Of a DNA stretch of 32,000 bases, positions 3,022-11,441 are shown in pieces. Position 1 is the first letter of the stretch, and every line of letters begins with the position of its first letter. A program made the position numbers and the translations under genes. A model generated the notes under the pieces. The model had not been told where the DNA came from and searched no databases. It saw only the letters and a program-made list of their open reading frames with translations. Source of the stretch: Nostoc sp. PCC 7120 = FACHB-418 (GTDB lineage Bacteria > Cyanobacteriota > Cyanobacteriia > Cyanobacteriales > Nostocaceae); the NCBI RefSeq assembly GCF_000009705.1, contig NC_003272.1, forward strand, positions 2,550,001-2,582,000, read 5' to 3'.

Positions 3022-5949
3022 CTATAAATCATTCATGAGCCAACACTGGTAAAATTCCTGATAAGTCAGATTTTCGGCACAGTACCACAGCACTTTGTAA
3101 CAATCTCGGTGTGATTCCAACTCGTTTTCCCTTGCTGTGGGAAAAAAGCAATCTTTCAGGTAGAAAATTACTTGTGGTAACTGTGCATCAATGAGGATTT
3201 CTTTTAAATTGTCTGCTGTGCGTTTGCGTAGCGATTCGCGTTGGGTTGACTTGAGCAATTGTAGTAAGGTGGTCAAGGCAATTTTATTACCTGGGTCAAG
3301 TTGTGCTAGTTTGTAGGCTCTACGTCTTTTGGTGTCTTCATCCTCACACGAGGAGATACCACGGATTAAGGCTGTGATTTTTTCAGGTACAGGGTAAAGT
3401 ACCTTTTGTTTTTGTTGTCGTTTACCTTGCCATTTATGTGTAATTTCTTCACCGCGTAAAGTTACTAGATTCTCGGTGGCTTGGCGGCCTTGGGAGGAAT
3501 CTGTGGCTGATTGGGCAATTTTTTCTAATGTGGTAATAGCTGTGGTGTTGAGGGAATCAAGTTTGCCTAAACTATAAGCAGCCTTACGACGAGTAGATTC
3601 ATTGTGAGTAGTTGCGATAATTTGCAGCAATGCAGTCATAGCCGTGGGATTTTCTGCATCGACTCTGCCTAAACTATAGGCAGCTTGCCAACGAATAGTC
3701 TCATGCCGAGCTATTTTAACAATATTTTCCAAAGAAGCGATCGCAATCTTGTTTCCAGGGTCGAAAATCTTACCTAAACTATAGGCTGCATTCCAACTAT
3801 CAAACTCATTGTCACAGGACGTGATAAATTGCTCTAAGCAGGCGATCGCTTTTAGGCGATCTGTTTTGAGTAAAGCTATCCGCGCACCTTCTACAATGGG
3901 TGATGGATATCTGCACCATTTTTGCTTTTGTGAATCAAAGTAGCCAAAACGCCACTTAATTAACTGCTGAATCATCGTCTCAGCTTGTTGACAATTGGTA
4001 AATTCAGCAATTCCCTGGGCTGCCAAAAAATAAGCTTGATAATTATAGAATCCCCCGCAGCCATCCTTAAACTGAATCAGTGCGTTAATCAACGCCTCTT
4101 TTTCTACTTGTGGTACATCATCCCTACCCAGCCACAATAGTATTACCTCTCGCCATTGCGGCTCAAAAATCCGGTAACTGCTTTCCCCTGAAAACAGATA
4201 ATCCCCTCCTACTCTCCAATCTGTAATAGCCTGAGCCGCAAAATATTCTTGAAATGTGGGATGGTAAAAAGCATAAACTTTTTCCCCTTGAGTTTCGGAA
4301 ATACCTACTTGATTCAACCAACCTAACTGGAGTGCTAGTTGGAACAGTTCATCTTCGGGAGCGCCTAAAACTTGGCAGACAAAACGATGTCTGAGGCGAA
4401 ACTTTGTTTGTTCTTGAGCGATTGCCAACAGCGCTAATTTTCCCAACGCTCGGTTTAACTCCTGTCGCTGAGTGGAAGTAGTAGGGAAAATGTCTTGTTT
4501 CCACTCATAAATTGCTTCCACAAACTGCTGATAAAGCATCGCCTTACTATGAGGTAATTCTCCCTGAGTGATGCCCCAAATCCGACACAACAACGCCAAG
4601 CGTAAGGGATTTTTTACCGTATCTTTGACGCGCCGCCTTTCTGGTTGCTTTAACTCATGTTGCAGTTTTTCGCCTAAAGCTGGATTGTACTGAAACCATC
4701 GACAAATAAATTGCCCTAACCACTCCTGTGTTTGATCCTGGCCGTAGGTAAAATGTAGATTGCAGTAAGTGTCAAAGTTTTCTAAAGCATTCTTACCCCC
4801 ATCCCAAACATTCAGCCGACAGGTAAGAATAATTGTGGCATCTCCTACCCAGCTTTTCAGGAAACTAGCAATTTTCGCCAAGGCGCTGGTAGATTCAATG
4901 GCCATTTCATCCACCGCATCCAGCAGTAACCAAACTCTTCCTTGGTTGAACTGTTCACAAAATGCGTCTTCAAGTTCTGGTGAAACCCTAAGTTTACGCA
5001 TAGCTGAAGGTAGCCAGTCTTGAATTAAATACTGTTCCAGCGTTTTACCTTGTAAATCTGCTAGGGAAATCCAAACTGGTAAATCTGCGGTATTATCTAA
5101 CACCCAAGCAGCAATTCTTTGCAAGAAAGTAGTTTTCCCTGCGCCTGGTTCACCAACAATGGCAATTCGCTGACTTTGCTTTTTTCCTAGTACCTGTTGA
5201 ATAAATTCATTATGGTCAAAGGTTTGAGTAATATCCAAGTCCTCTGGTTCATATAAACGCGAACCCTCTTGGGGAGTGACATCATCACGACGACGTAAAC
5301 GCTGTTTTCGCTGCACTAAGCCCAAAGGTACGTAAACCTGATTCAATTCAAAAGTGACACCATCTGCACTGGTAAGGGGATTGGTTGTCAGGCGGTTGTT
5401 GAGGTTGGCGCGGCATAGTTCTTGCCAATTTAGCTGGGGAGTGGGGGGATTTGCTTGTTTATCCGCTTTTGCTGCTGTGACTTCCTTGGATTTTTCTGGA
5501 CGGCGACTTTCCCAGTGGGAATCAAATTTTTGTAAGTTGGCTGCTATATCTTGGTGTTTGTACCAAAGATTGAGGGTGAAGTGCCAAGTTTCGGAACCAC
5601 TGCGAGATGGGCGATTGTCTTCTAATATTTCTAAGAAATCTGCAAACCGTTTTAAGGCTTCTTTGATTTGTTCAGATGTTAACTCATCTGATGTTAACCC
5701 CGTTAAAGCCTGCAAAAATCTGACTTTAGTTCTGACAACTAGGCGAGTTTCACTTTGCCAGCGAGTTTGTATTTGGGGACGCAGAGCATCTAAAGCCGCT
5801 TCATCGCAGCCTAGCTCATCATTAGCATAAGCTAATAGTACCTGTAATAAATGCCGCGATCGCTTTTTTGCCTCTGGGCCATAACTCGCTCTTGCCATTA
5901 TCGTAGCTGCATACTCAACAAAGTTCGGGGATTCCCCCAAGTTTAGCAA
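3022..5949 (-). CDS. STAND NTPase: unrecognised N-terminal domain + NACHT P-loop + C-terminal HEAT (PBS-lyase-type) repeats
   Basis: 975-aa ORF. Walker A is VGEPGAGKTT and Walker B is VWLLLDAVDEM. The linker LTTNPLT...VYVPLGLVQRK is typical of cyanobacterial NACHT proteins. The repeated AAYSLGK(I/L)/AAYSLGRV/RAYKLAQLDPGN units indicate HEAT repeats. The track start is TTG (5949); ATG at the MARASYG position is an alternative. Confidence 0.9.
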   Translation of the reverse strand: MLNLGESPNFVEYAATIMARASYGPEAKKRSRHLLQVLLAYANDELGCDEAALDALRPQIQTRWQSETRLVVRTKVRFLQALTGLTSDELTSEQIKEALKRFADFLEILEDNRPSRSGSETWHFTLNLWYKHQDIAANLQKFDSHWESRRPEKSKEVTAAKADKQANPPTPQLNWQELCRANLNNRLTTNPLTSADGVTFELNQVYVPLGLVQRKQRLRRRDDVTPQEGSRLYEPEDLDITQTFDHNEFIQQVLGKKQSQRIAIVGEPGAGKTTFLQRIAAWVLDNTADLPVWISLADLQGKTLEQYLIQDWLPSAMRKLRVSPELEDAFCEQFNQGRVWLLLDAVDEMAIESTSALAKIASFLKSWVGDATIILTCRLNVWDGGKNALENFDTYCNLHFTYGQDQTQEWLGQFICRWFQYNPALGEKLQHELKQPERRRVKDTVKNPLRLALLCRIWGITQGELPHSKAMLYQQFVEAIYEWKQDIFPTTSTQRQELNRALGKLALLAIAQEQTKFRLRHRFVCQVLGAPEDELFQLALQLGWLNQVGISETQGEKVYAFYHPTFQEYFAAQAITDWRVGGDYLFSGESSYRIFEPQWREVILLWLGRDDVPQVEKEALINALIQFKDGCGGFYNYQAYFLAAQGIAEFTNCQQAETMIQQLIKWRFGYFDSQKQKWCRYPSPIVEGARIALLKTDRLKAIACLEQFITSCDNEFDSWNAAYSLGKIFDPGNKIAIASLENIVKIARHETIRWQAAYSLGRVDAENPTAMTALLQIIATTHNESTRRKAAYSLGKLDSLNTTAITTLEKIAQSATDSSQGRQATENLVTLRGEEITHKWQGKRQQKQKVLYPVPEKITALIRGISSCEDEDTKRRRAYKLAQLDPGNKIALTTLLQLLKSTQRESLRKRTADNLKEILIDAQLPQVIFYLKDCFFPTARENELESHRDCYKVLWYCAENLTYQEFYQCWLMNDL

Positions 5950-6100
5950 CTTCCCCTAAGCATCTAAACTCGATTGCACAAGCATTTCCGGTTGCACCTT
6001 CACAATTAGCTTCAGGGAAGTTTCCCAGAATATTCTGATTTTATCCGAAGCACACGACTAAGCACTTGAATATATATCCATGTAGGTATTATTAATTCAT

Positions 6101-6469
6101 ATGTTAAAACTCACTTATACCGAAAATAGCGTTAGTTTAGATTATCTCGACGTACCTTTAGAAAATTGGGTAAATCAAAGAGTAAATTTGGCTCTTAGCA
6201 CTGGCACAAATATCTACATGGAACCCAGCACGGCGGCTTTTCTATTACCTATCGAATCATCCCCCTTAGCTGTTTTAGAGAAGTTAGCCCAAGCCAACTT
6301 GATAGATTTTTGTCCTTGTGATCCCTCATACTTTGAAGTTACTCTCCAAGGTATATACATAACGTCAACTGAAAACAGCGAAACAGGGGTCTTCGTCACA
6401 GATTTGATTTCATCTGTAGAATTATTACTCCAACAATTATCTCAAAGGCAGCAACTCTGCCACGCTTAG
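6101..6469 (+). CDS. Hypothetical protein (122 aa), first gene of the plus-strand locus
   Basis: Clean ATG ORF, divergent from the NACHT gene, ending 16 nt before the first structured RNA element. No motif recognised. Confidence 0.55.
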   Translation: MLKLTYTENSVSLDYLDVPLENWVNQRVNLALSTGTNIYMEPSTAAFLLPIESSPLAVLEKLAQANLIDFCPCDPSYFEVTLQGIYITSTENSETGVFVTDLISSVELLLQQLSQRQQLCHA

Positions 6470-6484
6470 TAATTCAGTCTTGCT

Positions 6485-6561
6485 GTTCGCGGGACTCTGG
6501 TATGACTTCCGAACCCAGTCTGTGAAACTGTCCTAGCTAGTCGTGTCGCCTTTCCCCGAAC
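6485..6561 (+). ncRNA. Structured RNA candidate 1 (Y-RNA-like terminal stem with a bulged C)
   Basis: 77 nt. The 5' GUUCG-C-GGGA pairs with the 3' UCCC-CGAAC, giving 9 bp with one bulged C. After an internal loop, GGUAUGACU (nt 15-23) pairs with AGUCGUGUC (nt 55-63). The apical hairpin is CAGU/ACUG with a 7-nt loop. The three G-U pairs would be C-A mismatches on the other strand, so transcription should be from the plus strand. Confidence 0.5.
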
Positions 6562-6573
6562 AGCACCCATAAC

Positions 6574-6614
6574 AATTCAAAATACCCTACGGGAAGCGCA
6601 AGCGCTACAAAATT
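6574..6614. repeat. Left arm of a ~40-bp inverted repeat
   Basis: aattcaaaataccctacgggaagc (6574-6597) is the perfect reverse complement of 6868-6891. The match continues imperfectly to gctacaaaatt (6604-6614), which pairs with 6853-6863. Confidence 0.75.
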
Positions 6615-6640
6615 CAAAATTTTTTAGCTTAAGTCTTAAT

Positions 6641-6717
6641 GTTCGCGGGACTTTGGTATGACTTCCGTTCCAACCTTTTAAGTTGTCTAACCTAGTCGTA
6701 CCGTTCTTTCCCCGAAC
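6641..6717 (+). ncRNA. Structured RNA candidate 2 (paralogue of candidate 1, 156 nt downstream)
   Basis: 77 nt with the same fold. The terminal stem is identical. In the second stem the partner is AGUCGUACC, where G-U pairs in copy 1 become G-C and U-A. The apical hairpin is CAAC/GUUG, which is two fully compensatory pair changes relative to CAGU/ACUG, and the loop is again 7 nt. Confidence 0.5.
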
Positions 6718-6757
6718 TTGATATAAAAGACTTCCAGATAAAAAAATATCCAAATTT

Positions 6758-6852: not shown

Positions 6853-6891
6853 AATTTTGTAGCTTTAGCTTCCCGTAGGGTATTTTGAATT
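6853..6891. repeat. Right arm of the ~40-bp inverted repeat
   Basis: aattttgtagc...gcttcccgtagggtattttgaatt is the reverse complement of 6574-6614. It overlaps the TTG start proposed by the ORF track for the next gene. Confidence 0.75.
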
Positions 6892-8372
6892 TTGAATTGG
6901 AGCGAAGCGACGTGACTAACCTCAATACAAACCGCGTTGAACAGGTAGCGCGAGAAGATTTAGTAATGTTTATTAATGCTTGTCTTGCTTGCACTGGACA
7001 AAAAGAATTTTATGATGATGCCTATGGTCAACGAGTATCAATTGACTTTTTACACGATTATATTCTGGGTAATTACCGTTTACTTTATGCCCGGACTTTA
7101 GCCGCAGGTATCAACCATTTCAACCAAGCCCAAATTATCTTAAAATTACTGGCGACAGGAAAAGACACAATCCCCGAACATCGCCAAGAAGAAGGCGCAC
7201 TGATTGCTCATGCACTCAACGCCTTACCTCCACAACGAGCTTGGGGCGTTTTACAACAGTTAAGACAACGTAAAATTAATAATAGACGAAGTAGAGCGAT
7301 CGCCCGCGATTATTTAAGTATGCGGCGTGATATGAGTTTTGATGCTGTTAAGTATCGCGCAAAAGTGAGAGCGATCGCTACCCACGCCCACCTGAAACTA
7401 CAAGGTGAATTGGGTACTTTCCTTTTCCACAACTGGAAGCAAAAGTCTTACTCCACTGAGTTATTTGAACAGTTTCGCCAAGCACATTACAGCGCCGAAG
7501 CCATTTACAATTTGCCTTTTACCATCGCCGAAGGATTTGCAGTTAAACACAAAGTCCCCCGCGATGTCTTCTTATCCCGGATTCAACAGCAAATGACTTT
7601 AGGCGAAAAGCTGCGTTTGCAAGGTGCGGCGGAACGTAACGAAACTGATATCAATATAGATTTTGGTCGTCTTCCCTTAACCAAGTTGGCGTTATATATC
7701 TTGTCTTTACCTTGGGATATACGACAACAACAAAGAGATATTTTACATCAAGCCTTAGAGCGATCGGCACATCTAGCGTTAAAAAAAGCGCCCTTAAAAC
7801 TAGGAAAGGTTGCAGCCGTCTTGGATTGCAGTTATTCCAGTTCCGGCTCTAGTGAAAAGCGCCGCCGTCCCTTGGGTATAGCTATGGCTGCACACTACTT
7901 ATTACAAGCCGCCGCGCAAGAATATCAAGCTTTTTGGACAGTACCCGTAGAAGATTCACTGCAAGTAAACGCCCGTGGACAAACAGACTTAGCCACACCA
8001 CTGTTAGCCGCTTTGGGAACAGGAGCCGAGTTAATCATAATTATTTCCGACGGTTGCGAAAATGACCCACCCAATGGAGCTGCTGAAGTCCTACGCATCT
8101 ACCGGACTAAATTAGATCCCAGAGGGCAAACTTCTATCATTCATTGCAACCCTGTATTCAACTCCGATGACTTTTCCCTACGCACCCTCAGCCCAGCCGT
8201 CCCTACCGTAGGACTAAGAGACGCAGAAGATTTACCAACGATGCTCAACTTTGCTCGTTTTGCTGAAGGTTCTGCACCTTTATCAGAACTAGAAACATAT
8301 CTAGCACAACGAGTAGAGCAATTTTTAACAGCATCTTCTTTAACTGGCACATCTTTTCGTGTTGGCTGTTGA
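6885..8372 (+). CDS. Protein with Ro60-like architecture: ~300-aa helical (TROVE-like?) domain + C-terminal vWA domain
   Basis: 495-aa ORF. A MIDAS-type DxSxS motif is present (VAAVLDCSYSSSGS), followed by a hydrophobic strand plus acidic motif (LIIIISDGCEND), as in vWA folds. The N-terminal segment LVMFINACLACTGQKEFYDD resembles the RFLxLG..GTxYY region of bacterial Rsr. The true start is probably downstream of the inverted repeat, at GTG 6912 (GGAG 10 nt upstream) or ATG 6963. The TROVE assignment is by eye only. Confidence 0.75.
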   Translation: MNFELERSDVTNLNTNRVEQVAREDLVMFINACLACTGQKEFYDDAYGQRVSIDFLHDYILGNYRLLYARTLAAGINHFNQAQIILKLLATGKDTIPEHRQEEGALIAHALNALPPQRAWGVLQQLRQRKINNRRSRAIARDYLSMRRDMSFDAVKYRAKVRAIATHAHLKLQGELGTFLFHNWKQKSYSTELFEQFRQAHYSAEAIYNLPFTIAEGFAVKHKVPRDVFLSRIQQQMTLGEKLRLQGAAERNETDINIDFGRLPLTKLALYILSLPWDIRQQQRDILHQALERSAHLALKKAPLKLGKVAAVLDCSYSSSGSSEKRRRPLGIAMAAHYLLQAAAQEYQAFWTVPVEDSLQVNARGQTDLATPLLAALGTGAELIIIISDGCENDPPNGAAEVLRIYRTKLDPRGQTSIIHCNPVFNSDDFSLRTLSPAVPTVGLRDAEDLPTMLNFARFAEGSAPLSELETYLAQRVEQFLTASSLTGTSFRVGC

Positions 8373-8470: not shown

Positions 8471-9649
8471 ATGTCAAAAACTAAAAGTTTATTAACAGAT
8501 ATATCACTCAAAGGATTGGAAATTGCGCCTTCTCAAATACGTGGTGCAGTACGTATTGTGCCATTGTTGCGGCGAGAAGTGCGGGGTGATTTGCGTTTGC
8601 TGCGTCGTTCTTACGATGAAGATATTGCGGTGGTTTCCCTGGAGGGTCAAATAAGCAAACCGGGGATGAAATACTTCTCTTATGTCCCTCATGGCTTAGT
8701 CATGTCTTGGAGTGATGACGGTAGTCCAGTAGCCAGCTTTGGCGGACAGATGCTCAAGCCTGAGGGTAAAAGTTTTAATTCCTGTTGTGCAAGTGTGCGG
8801 TTAATGCACCGCATGGCGAAACGAGAATCAAGGAATCAACTGAGATTTTTACCTTTGCACTTAGCAATGGAAGGTTTCCTTTCGCTGTTTTTTTCAGGCC
8901 CAGATATTGCTTGGAGTGAATATTCTAAGTATGCTTTGTCTCACGGACTGGGTTCACGCTACGAATCATCTTTTAGTGGGCGTTACATTGCTGGGTTAGA
9001 AGATGCTTTACGGGTGTTTGAGATTCACGAAAGACAAGTTGGTGTATTGGTATTTGTCGCTGAAGCTTTAGCCTCTGCTTTTGTCGTTCCCACACCTGAA
9101 GACTACCGCGCTCTGCACACCAGTCTTTTAGAAGACTTTTATGGTGAACTAATTTACGAGTACAGCTTGATGTATGGTGCAACTTTTCCAATGGCTACAT
9201 CTGTAGATGATGCCCAGATTAATAGTTTGACAGATTTAAGTGGAGCGATCGCCCAAATGCGATCAGATTGGGCTACATTCCAAGGATTCATGGCGGAAGG
9301 ATTGCTACAGCGCCAACTCCAATCCCAGAGAGTGTACACGGCTGGACAATTCCAACTGCAACGGTTCATTACTAATCTGCAACCTAAAGAAGAAAACCAT
9401 ATCGGTGAGGCGATTATTCGAGATAACGGAGAGTTAGAATATCTCAAAACTTACCGTCTATCAGCCGCCCAAACCCGTCGCGTGTACTTACTCAGCCAAC
9501 TAGCCGAATATAACTGGAATATTGATGCTACAGCCAAAGCCTTGGGACACACCCGCGATGAACTAGTTTCTCGCCTCGAAGCTTCAGGTTTTGGTTATCT
9601 ACTCAATCAACAAGTACGCGACGCAGCACGGAAAAAAGCGAAAAGGTGA
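8471..9649 (+). CDS. Uncharacterised 392-aa protein with a C-terminal Fis-type helix-turn-helix
   Basis: ATG ORF 98 nt after the vWA gene on the same strand. The C-terminus YNWNIDATAKALGHTRDELVSRLEASGFGY matches the pattern of Fis/NtrC-family HTH tails (NWN..AA..LG..R..L.RKL...G). The first ~330 aa were not recognised. Confidence 0.75.
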   Translation: MSKTKSLLTDISLKGLEIAPSQIRGAVRIVPLLRREVRGDLRLLRRSYDEDIAVVSLEGQISKPGMKYFSYVPHGLVMSWSDDGSPVASFGGQMLKPEGKSFNSCCASVRLMHRMAKRESRNQLRFLPLHLAMEGFLSLFFSGPDIAWSEYSKYALSHGLGSRYESSFSGRYIAGLEDALRVFEIHERQVGVLVFVAEALASAFVVPTPEDYRALHTSLLEDFYGELIYEYSLMYGATFPMATSVDDAQINSLTDLSGAIAQMRSDWATFQGFMAEGLLQRQLQSQRVYTAGQFQLQRFITNLQPKEENHIGEAIIRDNGELEYLKTYRLSAAQTRRVYLLSQLAEYNWNIDATAKALGHTRDELVSRLEASGFGYLLNQQVRDAARKKAKR

Positions 9650-10328: not shown

Positions 10329-11441
10329 TTAGCGGCCGCCTATCGCCTGGGCGAGACCGAGGAAGAGCGGTATTGCCAAGCCAATGGCAATGGGTGTACC
10401 GATAGCTGTGGAGGCACCGATGTAGGCGGAGGGATTGGCCGACGGAATTCCGGCTCGCAACGTGGGTGGACCTGAGATGTCTGAACTGGAGGCGGCGATG
10501 ACGGCCAGGATCACAACACCGCCCAGGCTGAATCCCGTGGCGTAGTGGGCAATCATGCCGAGACCGAAGGCGATGAACCCATGCACCAACGGTGCCACTA
10601 CGCTATACACAACGTACCACTGGGCTACCTTCCGTAGTTCGCCAATCCTTGACCAAGCCTCCATACCCATAACCAGCATCAAGATCGAAAGCAAGCCTCG
10701 GAAGAGGGGGTCGTAGAAGCTTTTATAGACACTTTCCGGCTGGGTGAACAGGCCAAGAGCAATGCCGAGCAACATTGCCGATAGGGCAGGGCCCTGGAGG
10801 CTTTCCTTGACGATCGGCCATATTTTGACCCGATTATCAGCAGACTGCTGCTTGCGGAGATACTCTTGCCGACTGCTGGGATAATCCTGCTGATCGGGAT
10901 ACTCGCCTGCTGCAACACTCTGCTTGCTGAGATACTCGCCTGCTGCACTACGCTTCTTCTTGTTGAGATAAATGTTGGCCACCACAATCGCCGTTACGAG
11001 CGCGGGGATATCCATGAAGGGATAGAGTGCGGCTGCCCATGCCTCGTATTGGATTTTTTGTTCTTCCAGTAGCGTCAGGGCGGCAGCCATGGTAGAGCCA
11101 CTCACAGCACCAAACAACCCCCCGGTCGCAATCGCATCTACGGTGTTGACCTTCGGCAGCTTGGCCAAGGTATAGCGCGCGATGAATACAACAAGAACCC
11201 CTACTGCTACAGCAGACGCTGCGGGTAACACCATCTCTGTCAGGTTGGAATTGCGGATCGCAATACCACCGGTCAGACCGATTTTGGTGAGCAACATGAA
11301 GACGATGATCTGACAAATCGCCTCTGGAATTATCAATTCGCTACCGAGAGCGGCAATGACCATACCACCAATCAAAAACCCAAGTGTTGGGGACTGCAAC
11401 TGCTTAACGAAGTCCATTAAGAACAAGGAAAAAAAATCCAT
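10329..11441 (-). CDS. sbtA: Sodium-dependent bicarbonate transporter SbtA
   Basis: 370-aa polytopic membrane ORF with two homologous halves separated by a hydrophilic loop. The N-terminus is MDFF..FVKQLQSPTLGFLIGGM. The GGAGG ribosome-binding site is 7 nt upstream, and the gene pairs with sbtB. Confidence 0.9.
   Translation of the reverse strand: MDFFSLFLMDFVKQLQSPTLGFLIGGMVIAALGSELIIPEAICQIIVFMLLTKIGLTGGIAIRNSNLTEMVLPAASAVAVGVLVVFIARYTLAKLPKVNTVDAIATGGLFGAVSGSTMAAALTLLEEQKIQYEAWAAALYPFMDIPALVTAIVVANIYLNKKKRSAAGEYLSKQSVAAGEYPDQQDYPSSRQEYLRKQQSADNRVKIWPIVKESLQGPALSAMLLGIALGLFTQPESVYKSFYDPLFRGLLSILMLVMGMEAWSRIGELRKVAQWYVVYSVVAPLVHGFIAFGLGMIAHYATGFSLGGVVILAVIAASSSDISGPPTLRAGIPSANPSAYIGASTAIGTPIAIGLAIPLFLGLAQAIGGR

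Follow-up and report, generated by a model that had tools for sequence, protein, structure and literature searches.

In Y RNAs the Ro60 site is a conserved helix from which a single C bulges out and whose opposite strand has a bulge of its own (PMC4726728), whilst the upper loop is variable and is thought to permit sub-specialisation (PMC4726728). Bacterial Y RNAs are encoded beside rsr (PMC4201824), and those of the YrlA class are defined by the motif GNCGAAN0-1G near the 5' end together with a tRNA-like domain whose T and D arms hardly vary (Chen et al. 2014, PMC4201824). The survey that established this class covered genomes with TROVE-annotated proteins; few of the YrlA RNAs that it detected were cyanobacterial, and its authors anticipated variant Y RNAs (PMC4201824); bacterial Y RNAs are known for only part of the bacteria that encode Ro60 (PMC4201824). 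The phage phiLo has a pair of Y-like RNAs upstream of its Ro60 gene, and these bind the encoded protein (PMC12135203). Here we describe a locus of Nostoc sp. PCC 7120 within a stretch of 32,000 nucleotides (nt) analysed as a whole (contig NC_003272.1, positions 2,550,001 to 2,582,000; hereafter the window, numbered from its first nucleotide), in which two copies of a structured RNA of about 85 nt precede, on the same strand, a gene for a protein with a predicted Ro60 fold. The RNA belongs to a family that is apparently undescribed and is conserved across two phyla; we put slightly better than an even chance on the proposal, made by analogy, that it is a Y-RNA-like dedicated partner of the downstream protein, the two elements then being paralogous genes for a structured noncoding RNA. 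The RNA copies and the genes that follow them are:

6481..6565, plus strand: RNA copy 1, type 1 (internal loop CCGAAC), made up of the core 6485-6561 and a 4-base-pair (bp) extension of the terminal stem (UGCU/AGCA)
6641..6717, plus strand: RNA copy 2, type 2 (internal loop CCGUUCC), with the same base and proposed protein-facing core as copy 1 and a different apical part
6912..8372, plus strand: divergent Ro60-like gene, its product predicted to comprise a TROVE-type helical ring and a C-terminal von Willebrand factor A (vWA) domain containing a MIDAS (metal-ion-dependent adhesion site) motif; the mechanical start of the open reading frame (ORF) is 6885
8471..9649, plus strand: ARPP-2 family gene, the conserved operon partner (Pfam PF22549, E 3e-117)

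An earlier interpretation made from the letters of the window (the sequence-only reading) had described two tandem 77-nt elements with near-identical ends and a divergent middle, and the comparison bears this out: the cores 6485-6561 and 6641-6717 differ by one mismatch (C/U13) over the first 27 nt and are identical over the last 13. The shared 27-mer has two exact occurrences in the 32-kb window, against none expected, and the window holds no further copies of the element. The compensatory changes claimed for the middle are likewise real, i.e. the apical pairing CAGU/ACUG becomes CAAC/GUUG through two double substitutions that leave the 7-nt loop unchanged, and in the second stem copy 2 has G-C and U-A where copy 1 has G16-U and U17-G. 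The bulged C (C6) and the internal loop, which sits after a 4-bp helix, are also present in the elements as had been stated. On the plus strand the minimum-energy folds of the two copies are rod-like and identical in shape (-22.5 kcal/mol, z -2.2, for copy 1; -27.1 kcal/mol, z -5.2, for copy 2), and the reverse complements give less distinctive folds. Only the length needed correction: whilst the two tandem elements stand, the true unit is about 85 nt rather than 77, because the terminal stem continues for 4 bp that themselves covary. Extending copy 1 by 4 nt on each side (85 nt) gives -31.7 kcal/mol (z -3.95), and its ends form the inverted repeat 6481-6492/6554-6565; copy 2 retains only two of the four pairs of this extension.

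The family was assembled from a starting set of 80 genomic loci that encode orthologues of the protein from 6912-8372. A covariance model trained on 26 copies of the RNA recovered copy 1 at 97.2 bits (E 5.5e-25) and copy 2 at 89.7 bits (E 8.6e-23), and gave 96 matches (E 2e-25 to 4e-10), located in 73 of the 80 loci and in the window, with one, two or three copies per locus; each of them stands upstream of the gene and shares its strand. The full family comprises 104 copies from 82 sources, 61 of which carry a single copy. The orthologous loci, where the sequence-only reading had proposed to look for the element and for covariation, thus carry it, and the covariation is abundant. In the final alignment of the 104 copies, which was fitted to the model and is somewhat biased toward the structure, 96.3% of cells are paired, double changes occur in 13 of the 23 pairs, and double-change cells number 254 as against 64 after shuffling; the covariation score of 0.410 compares with 0.211 for shuffled alignments (none of 500 shuffles reaches the observed value) and falls to 0.05-0.08 when the 3' partners are slid. 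RNAalifold nevertheless gives the same helices, and the pair types are varied (e.g. CG/UA/AU/GC in the apical stem).

Read from its base, the RNA consists of a 13-bp closing stem with the bulged C, an invariant helix of 4 bp (GGGA/UCCC), a 3x4 internal loop, a 10-bp helix that closes with invariant GACU/AGUC, a large internal loop starting UCCG and, at the apex, a hairpin of 4 bp whose loop has 7 nt. The closing stem (9+4 bp) is 99% paired, with covariation in four of its five basal pairs and all four pairs of the extension; the latter, i.e. those lying beyond the 77-mer, are 88-94% paired and show several pair types at each position. Blocks that are close to 100% invariant across the two phyla are GCGGGACU (including the bulged C, which is C in 97%), ACUUCCG and UCCCC. 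The lower half of the molecule is thus constant and the upper half variable, type 1 differing there from type 2, and of the 21 loci that hold several copies (the window included) 18 have type 1 ahead of type 2, with spacers of 34-243 nt. Copies score 46-99 bits on the gene strand as against 15-20 bits on the opposite strand, and several pairs are mostly U-G, in agreement with the earlier claim that the structure works on the plus strand only. The whole has the Y-RNA-like overall design that had been suggested for it: the 5' and 3' ends pair into a closed stem with a bulged C, a short invariant helix and an internal loop follow, and the apex varies. This is similar to the published description of the Ro60 site (PMC4726728), with a different helix length and type of bulge.

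The association of the RNA with its gene pair is similarly strict. An upstream, same-strand position relative to the Ro60-like gene was found in 73 of the 76 genome loci with enough flanking sequence, and again in four metagenome contigs, four actinobacterial genomes and two Nostoc plasmids; across about 0.75 Mb of related loci, no RNA copy was seen away from the gene pair. A plasmid search (7.3 Gb) returned four matches, all in Nostoc, and the two examined both have the gene pair downstream. Amongst the cyanobacteria, hosts are found in the Nostocales, Oscillatoria, Phormidium, Altericista, Stenomitos, Prochloraceae and Coleofasciculaceae, and there is in addition one Candidatus Obscuribacterales genome. 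A metagenome scan with the pattern GCGGGACT-N8-AYTTCCG returned 120 loci, of which four are real and the remainder chance matches (two of the loci, L132 and L173, give only weak model matches of about 22 bits). One metagenome contig, of 69% G+C, provided the route to the actinobacteria, where Streptomyces graminofaciens, [Actinomadura] parvosata, Stackebrandtia endophytica and Streptacidiphilus rugosus each have the RNA before the gene pair (48-56 bits); their copies share the invariant blocks. The RNA family, its structure, its coding strand and its linkage to the gene pair are established by these data. On a conjugative Nostoc plasmid (L208), XisH/XisI genes are inserted at 5618-6357 between the Ro60-like and ARPP-2 genes, and the PLSDB gene table, which is incomplete, shows no coding sequence over the Ro60-like gene.

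The product of 6912-8372 (486 amino acids, aa) is BAB73830 of Nostoc sp. PCC 7120. It was left unclassified by Pfam, NCBIfam, PADLOC and PDB sequence or profile searches, and Pfam TROVE (PF05731) has no match in this protein, in its actinobacterial orthologues or in nine distant relatives. UniRef names several members of the family, which has 720 representatives at 50% identity (E<=1e-3), as 'TROVE domain-containing'. An AlphaFold model built on a 34-sequence alignment (predicted local distance difference test score, pLDDT, 84; predicted template-modelling score, pTM, 0.81) was compared with the PDB using Foldseek, and the top six matches were all Ro60, Rsr or TROVE structures (E 2e-7 to 1e-4, template-modelling (TM) score 0.40-0.56, about 530 aligned columns), the next following at E 1e-2. 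The significant matches are to human Ro60, Xenopus Ro60, D. radiodurans Rsr and the Ro60 of Thermus phage phiLo (9l5y_B, TM 0.54-0.56); an earlier, shallower model gave the same ranking, and matches in BFVD included Ro-like and TROVE proteins, amongst them a Gordonia phage 'Ro-like RNA binding protein'. In the vWA domain the residues of the MIDAS motif DxSxS (D305, S307 and S309) are invariant in the 34 sequences, drawn from two phyla. Structure prediction accordingly shows a Ro60 fold for this protein, and the neighbour had rightly been called Ro-like, although Pfam misses its TROVE region; it represents a divergent paralogous family and is not a canonical Rsr.

Its operon partner belongs to the ARPP superfamily, whose members are predicted enzymes with conserved Cys and Gln residues, proposed to act on ribose or ADP-ribose in conflict systems (Iyer et al. 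2022, PMC9503650). In 76 of the 80 loci the ARPP-2 gene comes after the Ro60-like gene, and in actinobacteria the two overlap. A natural fusion (P0280, 828 aa) joins a Ro60-like region (residues 6-444) to an ARPP-2 domain (452-721), which suggests that the two proteins act together physically.

From these observations we infer binding of the RNA by the protein, a discrete RNA species and any role of ARPP-2, and we grade these steps separately. That the Ro60-like protein binds the RNA, a step common to a dedicated partner and to an mRNA leader, is distinctly probable; that the RNA is a Y-RNA-like partner of that protein is the reading we favour on balance. On this reading transcription would begin a few nt ahead of the foot of the terminal stem, the invariant lower half would dock on the Ro60-like ring, and the variable upper half, distinguishing type 1 from type 2, would tether or gate a second component, most obviously the co-encoded ARPP-2 enzyme or its RNA substrates, in parallel with the Y RNA that links Rsr to PNPase. 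Since no terminator follows it, the RNA would probably be co-transcribed with the operon and then released, or stabilised by its closed stem. An RNA acting in trans is favoured by the existence of tandem paralogues with a common base, a differing apex and a fixed order, by the variable distance to the start codon and by the gene that intervenes in three loci.

Several points weigh against a Y-RNA-like partner. The sequence-only reading had proposed a search with the Rfam Y_RNA model and YrlA-type models; at the gathering thresholds, and even at E<10, no Rfam model matches the elements, whether in their cyanobacterial or their actinobacterial form. The GGUCCGA-type motif is missing from the RNA, the conserved 5' strand being GCGGGACU; GNCGAAN0-1G is missing too, the 5' end reading GUUCGCGGGACU, and CCGAA occurs only in the type-1 internal loop, with U instead of G two bases before it. 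As regards a tRNA-like domain with T and D arms, ARAGORN finds no tRNA or tmRNA in the window and there is no match to the Rfam tRNA clan. To judge from its sequence, then, the RNA belongs to neither the Y_RNA nor the YrlA family. The protein is itself too divergent for Pfam TROVE or PDB-sequence profiles, and because it is so divergent from TROVE its mode of RNA binding may differ from that of known Ro60. Three loci (L008, L009 and L038) keep the gene pair with no RNA copy within 4 kb upstream. Discrete transcripts of about 85 nt, as well as protein binding, are proposed from sequence and by analogy; the 90 nt downstream of each of the 101 distinct copies hold no intrinsic terminator (one of the 101 flanks has a terminator-like site, which is no more than shuffled sequence gives); and in actinobacteria and the Nostoc clade only 24-45 nt separate the end of the RNA from the start codon and the RNA stands behind a -10-like box, which is the anatomy of a 5' leader.

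Two side observations belong here. At L038, similarity to the relative L054 ends 138 nt before the gene, which suggests rearrangement. The 12-mer GTTCGCGGGACT (window 6485-6496) matches a type III CRISPR repeat of Planktothrix agardhii (PMC9398003), probably by coincidence, the hairpin in that repeat being another one (CCCG-TTCG-CGGG).

The main and a serious rival is that the RNA is a cis-acting autoregulatory leader, an operator in the operon mRNA that is bound by the Ro60-like protein or a Ro60-like/ARPP-2 complex, has no life in trans, and would repress translation or alter mRNA stability as the leaders of ribosomal-protein and PNPase genes do. We regard this as rather unlikely overall, with its role kept in play because no terminator follows any copy. 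The signals at the 5' side bear directly on it. A strict sigma-70 scan of the window finds no promoter directly before copy 1 or copy 2; many lineages have a looser -10-like box, TAnnnT, 9-17 nt upstream of the core (TGnTAnnGT in the actinobacterial form), so that the stem base would coincide with the likely start of the transcript, as expected of a leader. Immediately before the core stands a further conserved segment:

6473..6484, plus strand: 5' flank box TTCAGTCTTGCT, with its copy-2 equivalent TTAAGTCTTAAT at 6629-6640

In front of most Nostocales copies the sequence YAGTCTTGCT stands in place of the -10-like box, and that farther upstream is unconserved; a direct repeat of 39 nt (D1) supports the conserved 5' flank, which could be either part of the transcript 5' end or a promoter or processing signal. 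The strict same-strand linkage, the predominance of single copies and, for actinobacteria and the Nostoc clade, the closeness of the RNA to the start codon also speak for a leader. Against this, the distance to the ribosome-binding site is unconserved: the RNA ends anywhere from 24 nt to more than 1.2 kb before the start codon, and the long spacers are filled with locus-specific heptamer tandem repeats of the Nostoc STRR type, the RNA itself remaining intact:

L005, L007, L012, L016, L017, L030-L036 and L059: heptamer spacers, e.g. CCCCAGT, CAACAGT, AATTCGT and TTCAAAA

In L024, L025 and L037 the gene after the RNA is a different one, an alr0857-family gene lying between it and the Ro60-like gene. 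There is moreover no evident helix that would sequester the Shine-Dalgarno (SD) sequence or the start codon, the terminal stem being closed on itself, and two diverged paralogues held in a fixed order across the Nostocales are hard to explain for a simple operator.

Some riboswitches occur in tandem, as the copies do here. The RNA might be a riboswitch-like sensor of a small molecule, e.g. a ribose- or ADP-ribose-derived metabolite relevant to ARPP-2, that controls the operon; its internal-loop nucleotides are invariant in two phyla, and it lies 5' of an operon whose second gene encodes a predicted sugar- or ribose-acting enzyme (PMC9503650). We nevertheless hold such a sensor to be very improbable, as there is no expression platform (neither a terminator nor an alternative helix sequestering the SD sequence), the spacing to the gene is variable and at times very long, the single rod-like hairpin has no multi-helix junction or pseudoknot to suggest a ligand pocket, and the neighbouring protein with an RNA-binding fold explains the conservation more simply. 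The last explanation, that of a dispersed repeat, a mobile-element remnant (of miniature inverted-repeat transposable element or STRR type) or a chance duplication without RNA function, could appeal to an intergenic region rich in Nostoc-type repeats, with a 30-nt inverted repeat around copy 2 and a 22-nt hairpin after it, and is excluded by linkage (all 104 copies lie directly upstream of one gene family, with just two in the 32 kb, none off the gene pair in the related loci and only Nostoc matches amongst the plasmids, the two examined carrying the gene pair), by covariation that preserves the pairing, and by conservation from cyanobacteria to actinobacteria despite very different G+C; the earlier fear of a high-copy dispersed repeat is thereby put aside.

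The two intergenic features just mentioned can be described in their own right. The 30-nt inverted repeat (6574-6603 and 6862-6891, 93% complementary) flanks copy 2 and stops a few nt short of the GGAG in front of the Ro60-like start codon; it has only two copies in the window, is not present at orthologous loci with short spacers, and may form a long-range helix or be what an insertion left behind. The hairpin 6758-6779/6799-6820, with 22-nt arms TAGGGTGCGTCAGT, lies between copy 2 and the gene and is unique in the window. Two genes upstream of the RNA are accessory neighbours confined to the Nostocales:

6101..6469, plus strand: gene for a small protein of the alr0857 family (NCBIfam NF045647, E 9e-42), found in 34 of the 80 loci
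3022..5949, minus strand: gene for an EAD4-NACHT-HEAT STAND NTPase (Pfam EAD4, NACHT, HEAT_2 and NCC-H), divergently oriented, found in 20 of the 80 loci

The ORF 6101-6469 is a paralogue of alr0857 and not alr0857 itself; alr0857, the founding member, is reported to be induced when translation is stressed and also in a trcR mutant (PMC10272220). A relationship between this ORF and the EAD4 domain of the neighbouring NACHT protein was considered and dropped, no similarity having been found. Downstream, on the minus strand, is a gene for an SbtA-type bicarbonate transporter (Pfam Sbt_1, 10329-11441) that is unrelated to the RNA finding and, going by accession order, presumably belongs to the sbt operon all2133-all2134 of PCC 7120 (PMC7699953).

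A broader proposal can be advanced more tentatively, and we think it possible though doubtful: RNA, Ro60-like ring and ARPP-2 would form an unrecognised three-part ribonucleoprotein system of cyanobacteria and actinobacteria, with an ARPP-1 branch in planctomycetes, in which the Y-like RNA on the ring would gate or target the ARPP protein to damaged or modified RNA, e.g. ADP-ribosylated RNA. If true, this would be a new mechanism of RNA surveillance, RNA repair or anti-phage action and would give ARPP proteins their first functional context. The planctomycete branch (L210, L211 and L212) consists of distant Ro60-like relatives paired with ARPP-1-type genes, not ARPP-2, and because the covariance model has no match there, its RNA partner may be a different one. 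Tentative candidates upstream of the pair in L210, tRNA-like in sequence, were rejected as ordinary tRNA-Cys and tRNA-Lys genes. The neighbours in L210 comprise Band_7, endonuclease V, the same tRNA-Cys and tRNA-Lys genes and a gene of HIT-PLD-helicase type; L211 has four tRNA genes after its pair.

As to earlier knowledge, neither the RNA sequence nor a link between TROVE and ARPP was found in the part of the literature that was searched; nor was there any mention of alr2130, alr2131 or alr2132, locus tags assigned to the three window genes provisionally from accession order. The statement of the sequence-only reading that it knew of no such description in cyanobacteria thus agrees with what Rfam and this literature contain. 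What is added is a sharply defined RNA family tied to a Ro60-fold family that domain databases have missed and to the ARPP-2 enzyme family. It becomes possible to ask whether Ro60-like rings outside the canonical family have dedicated RNAs of their own, and what ARPP proteins do, in hosts as tractable as Nostoc PCC 7120 and Streptomyces, and the covariance model is ready for use in annotation.

Set beside the described systems, the locus has a partial counterpart in each. It shares with the ARPP conflict systems (PMC9503650) the superfamily of the second gene of the pair; the ARPP partners listed in that work are ARG/phosphatase systems, HIRAN, WYL and deacetylase, with no TROVE or Ro60-like partner and no RNA. 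With YrlA and YrlB it shares a place beside a Ro60 orthologue, sometimes in two adjacent copies, all 104 copies here being upstream of a gene for a Ro60-fold protein; we also count as shared the co-transcription with the operon, known from Salmonella and probable here, and a modular build, proposed here, of a protein-binding stem plus an effector module. Unlike YrlA, the present RNA is a single rod-like hairpin that has neither the tRNA-like domain nor GNCGAAN0-1G.

The metazoan and Deinococcus Y RNAs (RF00019; D. radiodurans Yrn1) resemble it in size (about 85-100 nt), in the long stem formed by paired ends, in the single bulged C of the 5' strand followed by a short, highly conserved helix and then a second distortion, in an upper part that varies and differs among paralogues, and in the adjacency of the gene to one for a Ro60-fold protein. 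There is no sequence similarity, and the details differ: the conserved helix is GGGA/UCCC (4 bp) here as opposed to a 7-bp helix of GGUCCGA type, the second distortion is a 3x4 internal loop as opposed to a 3-nt bulge, and the protein falls outside Pfam TROVE and has ARPP-2 as its operon partner, whereas Y RNA systems have PNPase or RtcB.

The Yrl1 and Yrl2 RNAs of phiLo differ in that they carry CGAA in a large bulge and have been demonstrated to bind their protein, whereas for the RNA described here binding is proposed and CGAA occurs only in type-1 copies (CCGAAC), being conserved neither in type 2 nor in actinobacteria. In arrangement, however, they come close: both systems place two tandem RNAs directly upstream of a Ro60 or Ro60-like gene, both sets of RNAs are recognised through their position and stem-bulge-stem shape and not through homology, and the phiLo Ro60 (9l5y_B) is among the best structural matches to the window protein.

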